Virus record (IMG/VR): IMGVR_UViG_3300004240_000045
Coordinates: 1-28,562 of that record
Direction: 5' to 3' (one strand)
Length of the DNA: 28,562 bases
Origin: a virus
Taxonomy: Duplodnaviria; Caudoviricetes
The notes under the pieces are model-generated. The model saw only the letters and a program-made list of their open reading frames with translations, was not told the origin of the DNA and did no database searches. Made by a program: the position numbers and the translations under genes. Positions 1,866-15,011 of the stretch are shown piece by piece (position 1 is the stretch's first letter; every line of letters starts with the position of its first letter).

Positions 1866-2522
1866 TCAGAAGCGGTTATTCCAAGAACCACCATACGGCC
1901 ACAGCTGGCCATTGATCATCCGAACACCGCTTGGCTTTTGACGAGTGACAAAGCCCCTGTAGCCAACGCGAGCCGTTGATTCACGACGCACTCTTGGCTG
2001 CACAAAGTCACCACGAATCATGTACTTCTGGAAGATGTCCATCGAATACGGTGGGATGAACAGCGCTCCGGTTTGCGCCATCCCACTCTTGTCAAACTTG
2101 ACCCTCAGATCACCGTCGCCAAGCTCAACCTCTTCGTACTCGCTGTTCTTCTGTCTTTTGACGCCACCATCGGCATCACGAATTCCCGTGTAGCCACCGC
2201 TGATACCAAGAAACGCTGCCATGTAGGCAACGCCCATCTTGAAGTCAAGCGGCAACTCGTCAATTTCAGAGTAGTAGTAGTCGGCGATCATCAACCTGGG
2301 CCATGCAAGGCTCTGATCGGGTCCAGCAGGCTTGCCCTTCCATTGCAAAGGGTTGATCGCCATTGTTGCAGCAACTAACGTCTGCTGCTTTTGCGGATCA
2401 GTCAGTGCAAGCCATTGCTGGATGCCATAGCTTGCAGGGATTTCACCAAGAAGAGCCGTGGCCTCGGCCACCGACAGGTAGGAATTGGCGTCAGGCGCCC
2501 CCAGTGTCGAGACAAAGGCCAC
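1866..2522 (-). CDS. Head-tail adaptor (DnaT-like phage family)
   Basis: N-terminal GAPDANSYLSVAEA and W.G......Q.LAWPR motifs; first large gene after the capsid gene. Confidence 0.7.
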   Translation of the reverse strand: MAFVSTLGAPDANSYLSVAEATALLGEIPASYGIQQWLALTDPQKQQTLVAATMAINPLQWKGKPAGPDQSLAWPRLMIADYYYSEIDELPLDFKMGVAYMAAFLGISGGYTGIRDADGGVKRQKNSEYEEVELGDGDLRVKFDKSGMAQTGALFIPPYSMDIFQKYMIRGDFVQPRVRRESTARVGYRGFVTRQKPSGVRMINGQLWPYGGSWNNRF

Positions 2523-2531
2523 AGGTCATCC

Positions 2532-2711
2532 TCAGGCGGCGGGAGCGGTGGTCGTGGCGACAGGCTTGGGCTTCGCCTTCGTCACGGTAGGGGCGGGCTT
2601 CTCGGCCGGCTCCGGGGCCTCTACGGCAGCTTCCTCGGCAGCCTCCTGGGCCTTGGCTTCCTTGGCGGCAATGGCGGCCTCACGCCGCATACGGAAAGTT
2701 CCAGCACTCAT
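2532..2711 (-). CDS. Small Ala/Glu/Lys/Pro-rich protein after the capsid gene
   Basis: Not in ORF track (59 aa). MSAGTFRMRREAAIAAKEAKAQEAAEEAAVEAPEPAEKPAPTVTKAKPKPVATTTAPAA; fills the gap between the MCP terminator and the adaptor. Confidence 0.65.
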   Translation of the reverse strand: MSAGTFRMRREAAIAAKEAKAQEAAEEAAVEAPEPAEKPAPTVTKAKPKPVATTTAPAA

Positions 2712-8636: not shown

Positions 8637-11117
8637 TCATCTCCAGCGACCGCCATGACCAGCCCTGGCGCCAGCTCTCGGGAAGACCTGCCAGATCAAA
8701 TAACGCAAGGCATCCCCAGCGTGCGAATAATCGGTCGCGCCACCCTTACTCGGTTTCAGTGTCTTCGGATCATAAGACCAGCGCTCAGCAGAGCTAATAG
8801 TATTGTGACAAGTGGTTGGATTCAGTAGAATCAGTCCACGGTGCATGTGAACATTGGCGTGCGCAAGGGTTTCTGAGATCGGTGGATTGCGCCGTTCTGC
8901 AACAACTTGAACACCAGCAGACGCAAGGATTTCATGATCGCTTTGCGTGGATGAGGTGGAATCATGCTTGCCGCTTGCGTCTGGATAGCAGGTGATCAGC
9001 CTGTTGGCAAGATGATGTGGGTATTTTTCGCGAAGATGCGCAACGAGTGCAAACGTATCGGAAACCTTGGATTCAGCAAAGCCATGTAGCTGCTGGCCGG
9101 ATGGACCCGGCCTTACAACTCCGTAAACCGCATGGCATTGGCCAATGTTAAAGTCAGCGCCAAATACGATACGCTCATTGCGCTCAGGTAGGAAGATCCC
9201 AGTTGTGTGCAGACTTCTGTCAAATTCGTAGAAGACAGTAGCGGACTCAAGATTAACAAACTCACCGTTAAGGTAAGCTTTGATGAGCTGAGGATGGTAC
9301 TTGAGCTTAAGGTCTTCGACGAAGCCCGGATCAAGGTGAGGGTTGTCCTCTGATTTGCCGCGATACAACTTTTTGTTGTCGGCCTTTTGCTCCTCAAAGA
9401 AGGTGTACATCCAGCCATAGCCTTCCGGTGTTGATGCGGCTGCAATTTGTGGACAGTTACCAACACGAACGCGACCCTGCAGCTTGATCATCGCCTTTTC
9501 GGCGGTTTCAGGCCTGGTCGTATCAGTTTCGTCTGTTGCAATGCTTGCGGCGTTGACACCGATGAGACGTTCGTAGTTCTCCATCGAACGGAGAAGCACC
9601 GGAGTTTCGCCGCCTGGGAGCATTAACTTGAAGCTTGGCCTAGGAGATGCCTTGAAAGTGTGCGGAATTGCGTATCGCTCCAGCATCTCGTTCCACTTTG
9701 GCAGTGCAACGTCGTCGATTAGCGGAATGGTTGGCTCAAGAAAAAGGTGTGTAAAACCTTGGGAGCGGAAGCACAAAAGCAGTTGCTTTGCGACAAGGCT
9801 GTGGGTCTTGCCCGAGTTGTGATGAAGAATTCCGTGCGCTTCGTAATGATTCCATAACGGTACATGAATATCATAGAAGTCGTCAGTACGAACATACTCT
9901 ACGTTTTCCAGGCTTGCCCATGTATAGTGGGAATTCAATGAGCTTGATTGCCATGCCGGGGACAACCGTGACCGAAGCGGAGAGGAGCTGGATCGTCCAG
10001 ATGCACAAGGCTGGAGTTGATCCAAAGAAAATTGCTGCACAGGCTCAGCGAAATTACGGGACTGTGCTAAGGATCCTGAAGCAAAGCCGTATTGAAACAA
10101 CCAGGAGGGGTCCATGGGACCTTCTGACAGATGAGCAAAAGGATCAGTGCAAGAAGGATTATCAACGAGGTTATTGCACCTCGTACCTGAGCAAGGTTTA
10201 TGGGGTGACCCCACAGCGGCTGCTCCAAGAGTTTCAAAAGTCGAACTTACAGAGCCCAACGAATCGCGTAACGGGCATAGAGAAACTTTATGACTGCAAG
10301 GAAGCGGTAATTCACGATTACACAACAGATTCAATTGGAATGAGGGAGGTTGCTCGTCGGTTTGGCGTTCACGAAGGGACAGTCCGTGTATTTCTTGATC
10401 AAGAAGTTGGTCTGAAGAATCGGGGTGGTCAGCCGGGCGAAATGAACGGCATGAATAAAGGTCGGCAAATTGATCAAACTGATAGAGATCACGGAAAATA
10501 CTGGGCTCGCCGAACTGTTGAGATTGCGATTGGCAAAAAACTTCCCAAGGGCTGGGTAATTCATCATATGAACGAAAATCCGCGTGATCAAAGGCACTCA
10601 AATCTCTGGTTGTTTCCGAACTCGGAATCTCACGGGACGTATCACGCACGGCAATTAGATCGCCTGGCTGCAGGTGGCCTAATTCCCGCCAGCCAAACGG
10701 CGTCAGAAAACGATGGGCTTTGGTTGCCAGAACTTCTTGCCCTAATGAAGTCAGAACCCGATAAAGCGGAGCAACTCCTTTCTTGTACGCAGGCGTAGCA
10801 ACTGCTTCGCCGCAAAGCGTCTGAACTTTAATAGGCGTGCTGGTCAACTCCTTGATTGGCACGCCATTTATCAGTGTTTCACCAGCGACGCAGCCATACC
10901 CTCCACAGAAGCCGACGTACTTATTTTCAAAGTCCTGGACGAAGGCTCTCTGATATGGCAGCAGATCCTCAAGGATCTTGATCTCGGCTGCCTGTACGTC
11001 AAAGCCGGAGTTGGAGCGCTTCTTCAGCCTTGTTAGTATTCCGCTGTCATGCAAAAGGCCGAGAGAGCGGACTGATGCTCGGTCGGCGTAGTAGTTGCCC
11101 TTCGTTCTGGCTGGCAC
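8637..11117 (-). CDS. terL: Terminase large subunit precursor containing an intein (826 aa; 467 aa after splicing)
   Basis: LLPYQ adenine motif, Walker A GGYG|SGKT split by the intein, Walker B ATDETD, motif III ASTPEG, nuclease FGADFN, YPDASG and C-terminal HAGDALRY. Confidence 0.95.
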   Translation of the reverse strand: MPARTKGNYYADRASVRSLGLLHDSGILTRLKKRSNSGFDVQAAEIKILEDLLPYQRAFVQDFENKYVGFCGGYGCVAGETLINGVPIKELTSTPIKVQTLCGEAVATPAYKKGVAPLYRVLTSLGQEVLATKAHRFLTPFGWRELGHLQPGDLIAVRDTSREIPSSETTRDLSAFDHADFRSYDELPSPWEVFCQSQSQQFGEPSIFRDLYQFDQFADLYSCRSFRPADHPDSSDQLLDQEIHGLSLRERQTDEQPPSFQLNLLCNRELPLPCSHKVSLCPLRDSLGSVSSTFETLGAAAVGSPHKPCSGTRCNNLVDNPSCTDPFAHLSEGPMDPSWLFQYGFASGSLAQSRNFAEPVQQFSLDQLQPCASGRSSSSPLRSRLSPAWQSSSLNSHYTWASLENVEYVRTDDFYDIHVPLWNHYEAHGILHHNSGKTHSLVAKQLLLCFRSQGFTHLFLEPTIPLIDDVALPKWNEMLERYAIPHTFKASPRPSFKLMLPGGETPVLLRSMENYERLIGVNAASIATDETDTTRPETAEKAMIKLQGRVRVGNCPQIAAASTPEGYGWMYTFFEEQKADNKKLYRGKSEDNPHLDPGFVEDLKLKYHPQLIKAYLNGEFVNLESATVFYEFDRSLHTTGIFLPERNERIVFGADFNIGQCHAVYGVVRPGPSGQQLHGFAESKVSDTFALVAHLREKYPHHLANRLITCYPDASGKHDSTSSTQSDHEILASAGVQVVAERRNPPISETLAHANVHMHRGLILLNPTTCHNTISSAERWSYDPKTLKPSKGGATDYSHAGDALRYLIWQVFPRAGARAGHGGRWR
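9922..9928 (+). promoter_or_regulatory. Candidate -10 element (G-TATAGT) for the intein-nested HNH gene
   Basis: 24 nt before ATG 9953, the same spacing as TGG-TAGAAT to ATG 12686 of the second HNH gene; no clear -35. Confidence 0.4.
9953..10798 (+). CDS. HNH homing endonuclease with three N-terminal HTH modules, nested antisense inside the terminase intein
   Basis: 281 aa from ATG 9953 (alternative ATG 9938). HTH-like units: VTEAERSWIVQMHKAGVDPKKIAAQAQRNYGTVLRILKQ, LTDEQKDQCKKDYQRGYCTSYLSKVYGVTPQRLLQEF and VIHDYTTDSIGMREVARRFGVHEGTVRVFL. Linker GEMNGMNKG. HNH_3-type core VEIAIGKKLPKGWVIHHMNENPRDQRHSNLWLFPNSESHGTYH. Confidence 0.88.
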   Translation: MPGTTVTEAERSWIVQMHKAGVDPKKIAAQAQRNYGTVLRILKQSRIETTRRGPWDLLTDEQKDQCKKDYQRGYCTSYLSKVYGVTPQRLLQEFQKSNLQSPTNRVTGIEKLYDCKEAVIHDYTTDSIGMREVARRFGVHEGTVRVFLDQEVGLKNRGGQPGEMNGMNKGRQIDQTDRDHGKYWARRTVEIAIGKKLPKGWVIHHMNENPRDQRHSNLWLFPNSESHGTYHARQLDRLAAGGLIPASQTASENDGLWLPELLALMKSEPDKAEQLLSCTQA

Positions 11118-11270
11118 TTAGCGGGAGCTGGTATGTGATTGTAGTGAAGGGGTTTCGTAGGTAGCAATTTCCGCCTCCACCCTGGAGCGATACACCCGGC
11201 CGCTGACGCCGGTGGTGTCCGCCAGCTCGACGGCTATGAAGGCGAGGATCTGTTCGCGGCGGGTGGTCAT
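11118..11270 (-). pseudogene. Truncated 5' remnant of a foreign tail-terminator-like gene (50-codon ORF)
   Basis: Not in ORF track. MTTRREQILAFIAVELADTTGVSGRVYRSRVEAEIATYETPSLQSHTSSR; the first ~32 aa resemble the N-terminus of lambda gpU-like proteins. ATGA-coupled to the upstream gene; its TAA abuts the terL GTG. Confidence 0.55.
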
Positions 11271-12091
11271 GGGATCGCGGCGGCGATGGCGTTGATCAAG
11301 GTGGTGACGCGGGCGTCGAGGAGGGCGAGGTCCAGGGCTTCGCCGATGCTGTAGAAGGGCAAACGGGCATTGCTAAGGAAAGCGGGAGATCCGTTGTCGT
11401 TTTGCGCAAAAATAAAGTGGCTTCGTGTGCCCGGATTTACCGCCGCATCTGTTAAACCACTTGTAAAAGCGTTGTCAGATCTAACCACAAAGCTGGTGCT
11501 AGATGTGCGGCTGGTTCCATAAAGCCCGGCCGCTAGCGTGACATTTGATGCCGTGTCGCGACTTCTGTTTCGCAAGTCTCCTGCGCTTTCGAGAAAATCA
11601 TCAGCAGTTAGGTAGCCACTAAAAGCACCAACATACCTCCTCGCTGCTATACCAATACTTGCCAAGTATACCGAGAGGTGCATATTACTTGTTGGATCAG
11701 CGTTTGCAGCTCGATTACTGTTCAAGTATTTCGTGGTGCCATTCCCAATCAATCCCGTCTTCCTGTTGAAATCAGCACTCACAAAGTTGTTATTCGTCGG
11801 CGCTGCCCCCACCAGCGGCACCAGCGCCCCGATCAGTGTGCGAGCGCCGGCCAGGATGCAACTTGCCTTGATTGCGCTCCAGATGCCATCTTGCTTACAA
11901 CCGATGACGAAATTATTGATGGCGTAACGAGTGGCAGTTTCAAGCGTTTGACCATCAGCCGCCTCAACAGCGGTGATGTATGCAATGGCATCGGGGTCGA
12001 AGCTGAAAGTCTTGGCAAGCACCAACTTCGCCCCGGTTGGCTTGGCAAGCACCAACTTCGCCCCGGTTGGCTTGGCGATGGCCAGCGTCAT
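11267..12091 (-). CDS. Putative virion appendage / lectin-like protein
   Basis: 274 aa; DPDA.AYITAVEAADGQ.LE...GCK.DGIW.AIKASCILAGART and FYSIGE.LDLALLDARV motifs recalled from freshwater phage proteins; AT-richer middle. Confidence 0.6.
   Translation of the reverse strand: MTLAIAKPTGAKLVLAKPTGAKLVLAKTFSFDPDAIAYITAVEAADGQTLETATRYAINNFVIGCKQDGIWSAIKASCILAGARTLIGALVPLVGAAPTNNNFVSADFNRKTGLIGNGTTKYLNSNRAANADPTSNMHLSVYLASIGIAARRYVGAFSGYLTADDFLESAGDLRNRSRDTASNVTLAAGLYGTSRTSSTSFVVRSDNAFTSGLTDAAVNPGTRSHFIFAQNDNGSPAFLSNARLPFYSIGEALDLALLDARVTTLINAIAAAIP
12011..12076. repeat. Perfect 30-bp tandem duplication (2.2 copies)
   Basis: CTTGGCAAGCACCAACTTCGCCCCGGTTGG twice plus CTTGGC; encodes AKPTGAKLVL twice. 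Confidence 0.95.
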
Positions 12092-12661: not shown

Positions 12662-12685
12662 ATGGCGGACCCGTAGAGAGTGGGC

Positions 12686-13408
12686 ATGGCCGAAATTGAA
12701 GAATGGCACGAGGTTCTAGGGTGGGAAGGCTTTTACGCCGTTAGCACTTTTGGCAGAGTCAAGCGCTTGGCTGGTAGTCCAAGGTGCAGAGAAGACCGTC
12801 TGCTTAAACCCAAGAAAAACACACGCGGCTATCTGACGGTCGCTCCTGTTCGCAGTGGCGTCAAGCAAACGAACGTTGTAATTCACCGATTGGTGCTTGA
12901 AGCTTTTGTTGGCCCACCTCCAAGCGACAAGCCGTACGCGAATCACATCAACGGTATCAAGACGGACAATCGACTTAAAAACCTGGAGTGGGTTACGCAA
13001 GCGTATAACGTTAAGCACGCGTACGACAGCGGTCTGCATGGCCGATATGCCGGATCGGCGGCCTCTGCTGCGTTGCTGACAGACACTCAAGTTCGGGAAG
13101 TGCTGAATATGTCGGCAAGTGGCATGAAGCACAAGCAAATCGCTCAGACCATGGGAATAGGCGCTCGCTCTGTGGCTGATATTGTCAACGGAAAGACTTA
13201 CCAAAACGTACCAAGGCCATCTGCTAGCAACTTTCTTTGCCGCAGTCGAAAGCTCAATCGTGAGCAGGTCCTTGAAATCAAGTCTTTGCTGGCCAAGGGC
13301 GAGCTTGTGAGCAGGGCTATCGGTGAACGTTTTGGTGTCACCACAGCGATGATTCAATTGATTAAGCACGGGAGGAGTTGGAGTCATGTCATCCCGCCGA
13401 AATCTTGA
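12686..13408 (+). CDS. Free-standing NUMOD4-HNH homing endonuclease (I-HmuI-like architecture) with two C-terminal HTH modules
   Basis: EEW..V.GWEGFYAVSTFGRVK (NUMOD4); HRLVLEAFVG....YANHINGIKTDNRLKNLEWVT..YNVKHA (HNH_3); LTDTQVREV... and KLNREQVLEIK...IGERFGVT..MI..IK.GRSW.HV (HTH). 3' end overlaps the fibre gene stop by 20 nt. Confidence 0.92.
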   Translation: MAEIEEWHEVLGWEGFYAVSTFGRVKRLAGSPRCREDRLLKPKKNTRGYLTVAPVRSGVKQTNVVIHRLVLEAFVGPPPSDKPYANHINGIKTDNRLKNLEWVTQAYNVKHAYDSGLHGRYAGSAASAALLTDTQVREVLNMSASGMKHKQIAQTMGIGARSVADIVNGKTYQNVPRPSASNFLCRSRKLNREQVLEIKSLLAKGELVSRAIGERFGVTTAMIQLIKHGRSWSHVIPPKS

Positions 13409-15011
13409 GAGTGCCGCCATCATTCCAAAGCTGCCCGGAGACACTGGGGTTTGATGTTGGCAATCCTGAGAACAGAATTGCTCCATCGGCCTTCACCGTG
13501 ATGCGCGTCGCGCCGTCTGTTTGCAATTCCATATCGCGAGCGGTTCCGCCACCAGCGCCTTTCTCAGTGCCAATGCGAAGCACATTGCTGCTCCACTCGA
13601 TCTTGGCACGCTCAAACGAGGTAGCCGAGGTAAATGTGTTGTAGACGCGCAGGGTTTGGGCGTTGGTGCCACGTCGCTGCGCAAAAGTATCAGCTGCATC
13701 GCGGCGAAGAACGGTATCAAACGTGCCTTGATTTGGGTTTGCATTGTTAAAGCCGAACGCACTATCAACATGTAATTGATAGGTATTGCTGCTCCATCCA
13801 GCGCCAATAGACGTGCCTGTATTGGTTACCGACAAACTGCCCGTACCCTTTGAGAACCCAGGCTGGCCGCTCCCAAAGTCAATAGCAGTAGCGTTGATGC
13901 GCAGATTCCCGCTTTGTGTTACTTCTCCTACTGAATCAATTTTGTATCGACTCGTACCATTAACCTGCAAGTCCAGCAGGTTCCCCGCAAACCCACTTGG
14001 CGCATTCACCCCCAGCCCCGTGCCGCTGGTGCTCCAGGCCGTGCTGGTAGCACCAGCCGGCTCGATCAGCACCTGAGGCTTGGTCGTCGTCGCCGTGCCG
14101 CCCGTGAACCACGTCCCGGTGGCGGTGATAGGCGGAAGGGATGCGGCGCCTGCGGTGCTGCTAATCAATCGTGCGCCGATTGTGATATTGCCGCTACTGT
14201 CAACAGTGGAATTCGCAACTCCGGCATAGGCCCCAGCATTGTTCCAGACGAGGTTGCCGCCGCTGCCGCCAACCAGACCGATCGTGCCGGTCGCATCAGG
14301 GAACGAAATCGTCCGGTTTGCAGTTGGCGTGACACACTGGAGCGTAGTGGTGTAGGTGCCGCCATCATCCAGGCTAATGTCACCCTTATTGGTAAGCTGC
14401 TTGGTGGTTTTGTCAAAGGTCAGGTCAGCGCTGCCGCCAAAGCCACCATCATCATTGAACTGGATCTGGGTATTGCTACCAGCAACAGGCTCCTTCTTTC
14501 CAACGGCAACAACAATCGTGCCAGTCGAAGCATGAACACGGCCAACATGGCCAACAATCTGCCGATAACCGGTGGTCGGCCGAACATTTGTCAGCCCACC
14601 AGCCGTGCTGACAAACAGCGCGTCGTTTGTCGCCCAGCCAGGGGTCGCAGTATCGTAGTTATAGATTTCACCAATGATGACGCCATTGCCTTCGCCATTG
14701 ACTGCAAGCGTCGATTCGACAAGGCCAATAGCAGGCCCAGTACCAGAGCCATCGGCATCCGCACGCTTGATCTCAACCCGATCACTGGAGCCTACGGTTC
14801 CAGAAATGTAGAAAGGTGTCCCCTTCTCAAGCGGTGCAACATCCAGGTTTTTGACGTGGATGTAGACATTGCCTGCAAGGCTGCCATGAATATGCGCGGC
14901 AGTCAGCAGTGTATTGACGGTCAGATTGTCAACCGTAAGCGGATCAGGAACTGCCGCACCAGCGCCGACAAAATCAAGATTGCCGGTAAATGGATTAAAG
15001 GCTACTGTCAT
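13389..15011 (-). CDS. Tail/virion fibre protein
   Basis: 540 aa, Gly/Thr/Ala/Ser-rich; FNPFTG.LD start, GSNTQIQFND, PTANRTISFPDATGT, L.RDAA.T.AQR.G and terminal LPTSNP.VSGQLWNDGGTLKIS fibre motifs. Confidence 0.75.
   Translation of the reverse strand: MTVAFNPFTGNLDFVGAGAAVPDPLTVDNLTVNTLLTAAHIHGSLAGNVYIHVKNLDVAPLEKGTPFYISGTVGSSDRVEIKRADADGSGTGPAIGLVESTLAVNGEGNGVIIGEIYNYDTATPGWATNDALFVSTAGGLTNVRPTTGYRQIVGHVGRVHASTGTIVVAVGKKEPVAGSNTQIQFNDDGGFGGSADLTFDKTTKQLTNKGDISLDDGGTYTTTLQCVTPTANRTISFPDATGTIGLVGGSGGNLVWNNAGAYAGVANSTVDSSGNITIGARLISSTAGAASLPPITATGTWFTGGTATTTKPQVLIEPAGATSTAWSTSGTGLGVNAPSGFAGNLLDLQVNGTSRYKIDSVGEVTQSGNLRINATAIDFGSGQPGFSKGTGSLSVTNTGTSIGAGWSSNTYQLHVDSAFGFNNANPNQGTFDTVLRRDAADTFAQRRGTNAQTLRVYNTFTSATSFERAKIEWSSNVLRIGTEKGAGGGTARDMELQTDGATRITVKADGAILFSGLPTSNPSVSGQLWNDGGTLKISAG

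Follow-up and report, generated by a model that had tools for sequence, protein, structure and literature searches.

An intein with an opposite-strand nuclease gene in terL

In a 28,562-nucleotide stretch of viral DNA (Duplodnaviria, Caudoviricetes; positions 1 to 28,562 of IMG/VR record IMGVR_UViG_3300004240_000045; hereafter the window), the terL gene is interrupted by an intein, and an HNH nuclease gene runs through this intein on the opposite strand. We consider it highly probable that the element is a mobile intein served by a homing endonuclease from a separate opposite-strand gene, with a tail dual-coded across block B of the splicing domain. The results demonstrated that the segment at 10646-10753, including block B, is under purifying selection in both frames, whereas the loop of the terL precursor and the distal tail of the nuclease are not. 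The features are arranged as follows.

8637-11117, minus strand: terL precursor gene, 826 amino acids (N-extein 75, intein 359, C-extein 392)
9816-10892, minus strand: intein, Cys1 to His-His-Asn with Ser at +1, terL residues 76-434; Walker A split as GGYG/SGKT
10641-10892, minus strand: N-terminal splicing half, intein codons 1-84, which aligns with HNH-less mini-inteins
9930-10640, minus strand: putative by-product loop, 237 amino acids, 17% Ser and 9% Pro, 0 Pfam families, kept stop-free
9816-9929, minus strand: C-terminal splicing half, last 38 codons, with variable third positions as under intein-only selection
9923-9928, plus strand: candidate -10 element TAnnnT, within the codons that immediately precede the conserved Trp of the C-terminal splicing half
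9953-10798, plus strand: antisense nuclease gene, 281 amino acids, with three helical repeats resembling helix-turn-helix (HTH) units, linker, HNH domain and tail
10562-10645, plus strand: HNH core with H204, H205, N217, H227 and H231, invariant in 40/40 sequences
10646-10753, both strands: 36 dual-coded codons, read as HNH tail on plus and as block B and adjoining intein codons on minus
10754-10798, plus strand: distal read-through tail and TAG stop, with little HNH-frame selection signal and a variable stop position

Class 1 inteins carry Cys or Ser at position 1, a block B of the form TxxH, a penultimate His, a terminal Asn and Ser, Cys or Thr at +1. The window's intein has this signature (C1, T57-K-A-H60, the HHN end and Ser+1), with Thr57 at 10724-10722 and His60 at 10715-10713 on the minus strand, and matched Pfam Intein_splicing at 42 bits (cut-off 35.8). 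Empty terL alleles carry GGYG[S/C]GK at the insertion site, so the insert lies in frame within a conserved motif, and a profile of the mini-inteins matched solved DnaB inteins (best E 4e-14). The intein is predicted to excise itself by protein splicing and to rejoin Walker A.

The nuclease open reading frame (ORF) matched HNH_3 (33.4 bits, cut-off 24.8) and HTH families only; no match of the LAGLIDADG or Vsr-like type, as in the published antisense cases, was found among its families. The spacing of its catalytic residues resembled the H102/H103/N118/H127/H131 pattern described for colicin E9 (PMC2816704), a likeness of pattern rather than of superposed structures. The nuclease frame is open upstream as far as 9755 and holds a second ATG at 9938, and the start at 9953 is common to the window and a 95% identical allele (L002). 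There were 39 homologues at E ≤ 6.5e-76, 4 of them annotated 'transposase'. In one family member (P0043) the catalytic pattern is apparently degenerate and the tail is retained, and in a sub-clade (L009, L010 and L011) the roughly 48 codons of the first HTH repeat are missing, and neither frame nor the hexamer at the candidate promoter is disrupted.

A segment across block B is constrained in both frames

After removal of identical DNA, 67 intein loci yielded 21 distinct ones (14 complete HNH-bearing, 1 partial and 6 mini-inteins). The 14-allele sets exclude L008 and L066, which are cut by contig ends; the 26-allele set, which adds distant alleles, excludes L159 (same protein as L088) and L099 (a tail-less case in a helicase intein); L055, L191 and L192 are the window itself. 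HNH codon positions 1, 2 and 3 face terL positions 1, 3 and 2, the non-codon-aligned register that an earlier note, made from the window's letters alone, had described. We measured pairwise divergence among the 14 alleles for the position classes HNH2/terL3 and HNH3/terL2. In the loop, HNH third positions varied most (0.22-0.35 for HNH2/terL3 and 0.47-0.58 for HNH3/terL2); where the splicing halves do not overlap the nuclease gene, it was the terL third positions that varied most (0.46-0.60 and 0.20-0.22). In the dual-coded segment neither third position stood out (0.23-0.29 and 0.26-0.30), and at 10754-10795 divergence was again intein-like (0.43 vs 0.10).

Direct counts of changes agreed with this pattern. 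Across five close pairs, the dual-coded segment held just 12 changes, 7 of them HNH-silent and 4 terL-silent, and over the 14 codons that precede the stop 9/9 changes were terL-silent and HNH-changing. At fourfold-degenerate intein sites, variability was 0.365 in the dual-coded segment (11 sites) vs 0.62 and 0.61 outside it (17 sites); permutation of these sites reached this contrast in 297/100,000 trials, or 758/100,000 with 10 non-redundant alleles. Two third bases were fixed in 26/26 alleles vs 2/6 mini-inteins each: the A at block B-1 (HNH Leu258) and the G at block B+7 (HNH Ala250). An exchange between Val and Ala in the intein leaves the HNH Leu unchanged. The earlier note had expected minus-strand selection only over 10650-10892, an expectation that fails for 10646-10753.

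We regard as unlikely the view that the tail is mere read-through, in which its conservation reflects the protein sequence of the intein, or else a signal in block-B DNA or RNA, and only the stop is borrowed. The distal 14 codons do behave in this way, stop positions float, and the ENGG of the tail corresponds, read in antisense, to the usual block-B His-Arg-Phe-Leu. Further upstream, however, third bases that are degenerate for the intein do not vary among HNH-bearing alleles but do so freely among mini-inteins, and intein exchanges take HNH-silent routes. Four older mini-inteins contain 2-3 HNH-frame stops across the block-B stretch, and a model of the HNH core with its tail (pTM 0.78) reached pLDDT 90-94 across most of the tail.

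The stop codon itself gave a different picture. In 26/26 alleles the ORF ends 11-51 codons beyond the block-B Thr, with TAG, TGA or TAA as the stop; because both position and type vary, the stop and the rest of the tail appear incidental, and we rejected the borrowed stop as an interlock between the genes. The proposed interlock itself held up in a stronger form than the earlier note had given it, through selection on both frames of 10646-10753. That note had also placed the tail opposite TKAHRF: this peptide (10707-10724) does lie within the overlap, but the TAG at 10796-10798 falls 25 codons beyond it, opposite intein codons 32-33.

Spread and decay among terminases

The element appeared patchily distributed. 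A first HNH search returned 11 loci, and in 11/11 the terL-intein frame was open and the register was that of the window. A terL search returned 29 loci: 3 full, 10 with a mini-intein (149-159 amino acids), 13 empty with an uninterrupted Walker A, and 3 short of the junction. A profile search then reached distant HNH proteins, nearly all of which carried a related tail (about 50 representatives inspected). The 12 distinct distant tail-bearing loci were all antisense, in the same register and within terL Walker-A inteins, and their exteins were 26-38% identical to that of the window (one 62%). The register was thus the same in 26/26 distinct full-length alleles, whose terminases are mostly 26-42% identical. 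Among the tail-less HNH loci examined, only L099 had an opposite-strand intein: there a tail-less antisense HNH gene (1962-2642, plus strand) lies in the same register within the intein of a helicase-like gene, and the antisense layout may have arisen separately.

The full, mini and empty states were interleaved across the extein tree, whose starred branches require the full state to have changed at least 4 times. The splicing halves of L004 and the window were 78% identical, their exteins 38%. Because of these changes of state and the discordant intein and extein identities, the element appears to spread horizontally among terminases. Two strongly supported sister pairs of full and empty exteins (L003/L034 and L056/L037) differed at 4/7 and 4/4 of the junction-nearest bases vs about 4% elsewhere in the extein, a clustering that fits intein gain with short co-conversion.

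This distribution bears on a different role for the HNH protein, as a packaging helper or terminase regulator and not a homing enzyme. HNH genes commonly adjoin terminase genes (PMC3592412), and the nuclease protein carries several HTH repeats. Near-identical terminases exist, however, without an intein or with HNH-less mini-inteins, and the element moves between exteins less than 40% identical, so that we hold such a role to be very improbable.

Several mini-inteins record how the element may decay. The mini-intein at L019:3226-3672 (plus strand) has kept the hexamer, the start and the tail, and its 86-amino-acid antisense ORF is the HNH start fused to the tail; compared with the homologue P0004 it is without 209 codons, by an in-frame deletion between two similar short repeats. 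In two mosaic mini-inteins, L014:642-1106 (window type) and L032:3214-3690 (L003 type), the first 120-180 nucleotides are near-identical to full alleles and the rest is not, and thus crossovers probably occurred inside the N-terminal splicing half.

The linkers of L016, L020, L024 and L032 also contain a PSPW..F-like motif similar to what the terL frame encodes opposite the HNH active site, and this is perhaps, on a weak likeness, a loop piece retained by the intein. For the motif of three mini-intein types as an HNH relic, nhmmer returned no rows and short blastp gave E 0.007-0.3.

The terL frame is kept open and selection on the loop acts in the HNH frame

The terL ORF is stop-free, and its frame was checked as open across 9600-11117. 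The nuclease ORF contains 45 NTT, NTC or NCT codons and 28% A-starting codons, the combination that can create an antisense stop, and it has 0 such stops. We ran three shuffle controls of 20,000 trials each: synonymous codons within the gene, resampling from the codon usage of the window, and codon order. The antisense terL frame stayed open in 0/20,000 trials of every control, with means of 7.9, 8.7 and 12.8 stops, respectively. For the loop part alone (9953-10645), it stayed open in 1, 1 and 0 of 20,000. Nine other genes of the window, read in the same register, had 1.8-7.0 stops per 100 codons and a longest open run of 155 codons, and four other long antisense ORFs of the window are in the codon-aligned register.

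The loop itself was conserved in the HNH frame. Among the 14 close alleles, loop identity was 51-71% in that frame against 26-42% for the terL reading, and the five close pairs held 267 changes that are silent for HNH and alter terL vs 53 that alter HNH and are silent for terL, the plus-frame purifying selection that the earlier note had anticipated. These comparisons and the shuffles support its proposal that selection purged antisense stops, leaving a loop of about 237 amino acids as a by-product selected in the HNH frame only. It is scarcely credible that the insert is instead removed at the RNA level, or TerL made as two pieces, with the terL frame not translated through: the loop has no family match and protein splicing is here deduced from motifs, but 26/26 alleles have zero terL-frame stops where shuffles predict several, the alleles retain Cys1, TxxH and the final His-Asn, and indels preserve the frame.

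A candidate promoter in the C-terminal splicing half

A TAnnnT hexamer at 9923-9928, which the earlier note had overlooked, was present in 15/15 close HNH alleles vs 1/6 mini-inteins, and an in-frame ATG followed 21-33 nucleotides after it in 15/15. Among 1,074 positions on both strands, this was the only one at which at least 60% of alleles held TAnnnT. The intein residues vary at the hexamer and alone would yield TAnnnT 12-38% of the time. In the distant alleles TAnnnT was found in 11/12, two codons further in 10 and at the position of the close set in 1. Their hexamer is often TATAAT or TACAAT, and in 7 alleles it starts 12 nucleotides before an ATG, the spacing of leaderless transcripts (PMC3160421). 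The hexamer is probably a promoter element driving transcription of the nuclease. A single terminator-like hairpin on the plus strand (11010-11028) was within shuffle expectation.

Structure comparisons of the nuclease

Structure searches with the nuclease models reveal, at the level of predicted models, no new fold. The best viral structure matches of the C-domain model were HNH nucleases (weak, E 0.03 and above), and its matches to solved structures were weak as well (Z 3.5 or less). One of these was I-HmuI (PDB 1u3e), with model residues 1-56, Z 2.2, rmsd 2.8 and 54 aligned. Foldseek with the whole model gave no match at E ≤ 0.001, a wide structure search gave matches confined to the first HTH, and a 40-row nuclease profile against solved structures gave HTH-type and designed-protein matches only. 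The nuclease alignment searched against genome contigs found no relative, and among isolated phages there was a single weak match (E 9e-4).

Proposed mechanism and its weighing

The following course of events would account for these observations. Because the splicing motifs are intact and the frame is open, terL would be translated through the whole insert, and the splicing halves would presumably excise together with the 237-amino-acid loop and rejoin Walker A. A -10-type promoter before the C-terminal splicing half would give a short antisense mRNA, with no leader in the distant clade and a short one in the window. The HTH-HNH protein would then cut or nick an empty terL near Walker A, and repair would copy the element; this homing step, at that putative site, is proposed because of the patchy spread and the invariant catalytic residues. 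The nuclease gene continues on the strand opposite the N-terminal splicing half, where about 36 codons may have become a selected part of the nuclease domain; with these codons, including block B, selected as nuclease, the intein codons there would therefore be fixed. In-frame deletion of the HNH core would leave mini-inteins.

We slightly favour a further step, an old one, in which a helical nuclease subdomain arose from the reverse complement of block B and is now required, and the promoter arose in codons of the other splicing half. If this overprinting took place, the nuclease would be neither expressed nor functional outside this intein, the pair would have spread as one unit across terminases only 26-40% identical, and the ENGG-type tail would mark a large hidden family.

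Several points weigh against the account given here. ACC at the block-B Thr (HNH Trp257) also occurs in 5/6 mini-inteins and is variable in distant alleles, and the Thr57 codon was therefore rejected as sole proof of dual coding. Openness of the HNH frame across the tail is weak per allele (P0 0.02-0.43), and the within-gene shuffles are less decisive for GC-rich alleles (P0 up to 0.07). The region borders of the fourfold-site test were chosen after inspection of the data. Because the alleles are related and recombining (the L014 and L032 mosaics), 26/26 does not represent 26 independent events, and every tail-bearing locus came from HNH queries, a bias towards intact ones. One allele (L095) is without the hexamer, a two-hexamer promoter scan of the window called no plus-strand site and no -35 element, and the fold searches yielded weak HNH matches only.

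Relation to known systems

The antisense-nuclease layout in inteins is already known, with LAGLIDADG and Vsr-like enzymes; what is added here is selection on two strands across block B and an embedded promoter candidate. Four non-canonical intein types have been described in actinobacteriophages: in-frame HNH, anti-sense LAGLIDADG, anti-sense Vsr-like and frame-3 EndoVII (Gosselin, Arsenault and Gogarten; bioRxiv 10.1101/2025.01.02.630785). Like the window's element, these are contiguous inteins with an opposite-strand endonuclease ORF and terL among their hosts, with patchy spread and mini-inteins expected as decay products. By contrast, no anti-sense HNH and no use of the word 'promoter' were found in the preprint text covered here, and the secondary ORF described there typically lies outside the splicing domain, whereas here the ORF passes the block-B Thr in 26/26 alleles. 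The Synechocystis DnaX and Chloroflexus SpoVR-like inteins cited there also carry an opposite-strand endonuclease in a full intein, but the nuclease is of the LAGLIDADG type and the hosts are cellular.

Other arrangements resemble the element in part. A same-strand hidden HNH (PMC11855218) likewise lies in another frame of a stop-free insert, with disjunct spread and proposed leaderless translation, but it occupies the third frame of the same strand, has no splicing domain and is flanked by zinc fingers instead of HTH repeats. Fractured genes that combine split inteins with a free-standing GIY-YIG or Vsr-like gene (PMC2677866) also have the endonuclease between intein halves, with its own promoter, and terminase is among their hosts; the 3' end of the endonuclease gene overlaps the downstream part by 6-69 bp. 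There, however, all lies on one strand, the intein is split over two genes, and the shorter overlap involves the C-terminal half. HNH_3 (PF13392) phage endonucleases and I-HmuI share the HNH core, but here N-terminal HTH repeats replace NUMOD4, and the helical tail was not seen in the retrieved free-standing HNH loci. A literature search on inteins with anti-sense, alternate-frame or HNH features, covering few subscription papers, found no anti-sense HNH over block B.

To our knowledge, phage and bacterial genomes rarely contain antisense dual coding in which selection can be measured on both proteins, and here it crosses a catalytic splicing motif. With its empty and full alleles, one recent deletion and older mini-inteins, the family provides a full series for testing the origin of a protein part by overprinting. 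The candidate promoter proposes an expression route for a separately encoded intein nuclease, a point that published cases leave open. Gene callers retain one strand only, and therefore such terminases or nucleases are mis-annotated, as with the 'transposase' homologues; the tail motif in turn predicts a hidden intein on the opposite strand.

Host and neighbouring genes

The terL gene belongs to a minus-strand head module, together with genes for a major head protein, a scaffold-like protein and a portal, and matched Pfam Terminase_6N, PHROG 2 and PHROG 10250. The host is likely a cyanobacterium, because the top terL matches among isolated phages were cyanophage terminases (41-42% identity). 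A second, free-standing NUMOD4-HNH gene (12680-13408, plus strand) is opposite in strand to its neighbours, and a 256-amino-acid ORF antisense to it (12716-13486) is in the codon-aligned register, with no family match. Directly upstream of terL, the ORF of a PHROG 17104 protein (11267-12091, minus strand) has two copies of a 10-residue unit at its start, produced by a short head-to-tail duplication at about 12012-12076 (minus strand).

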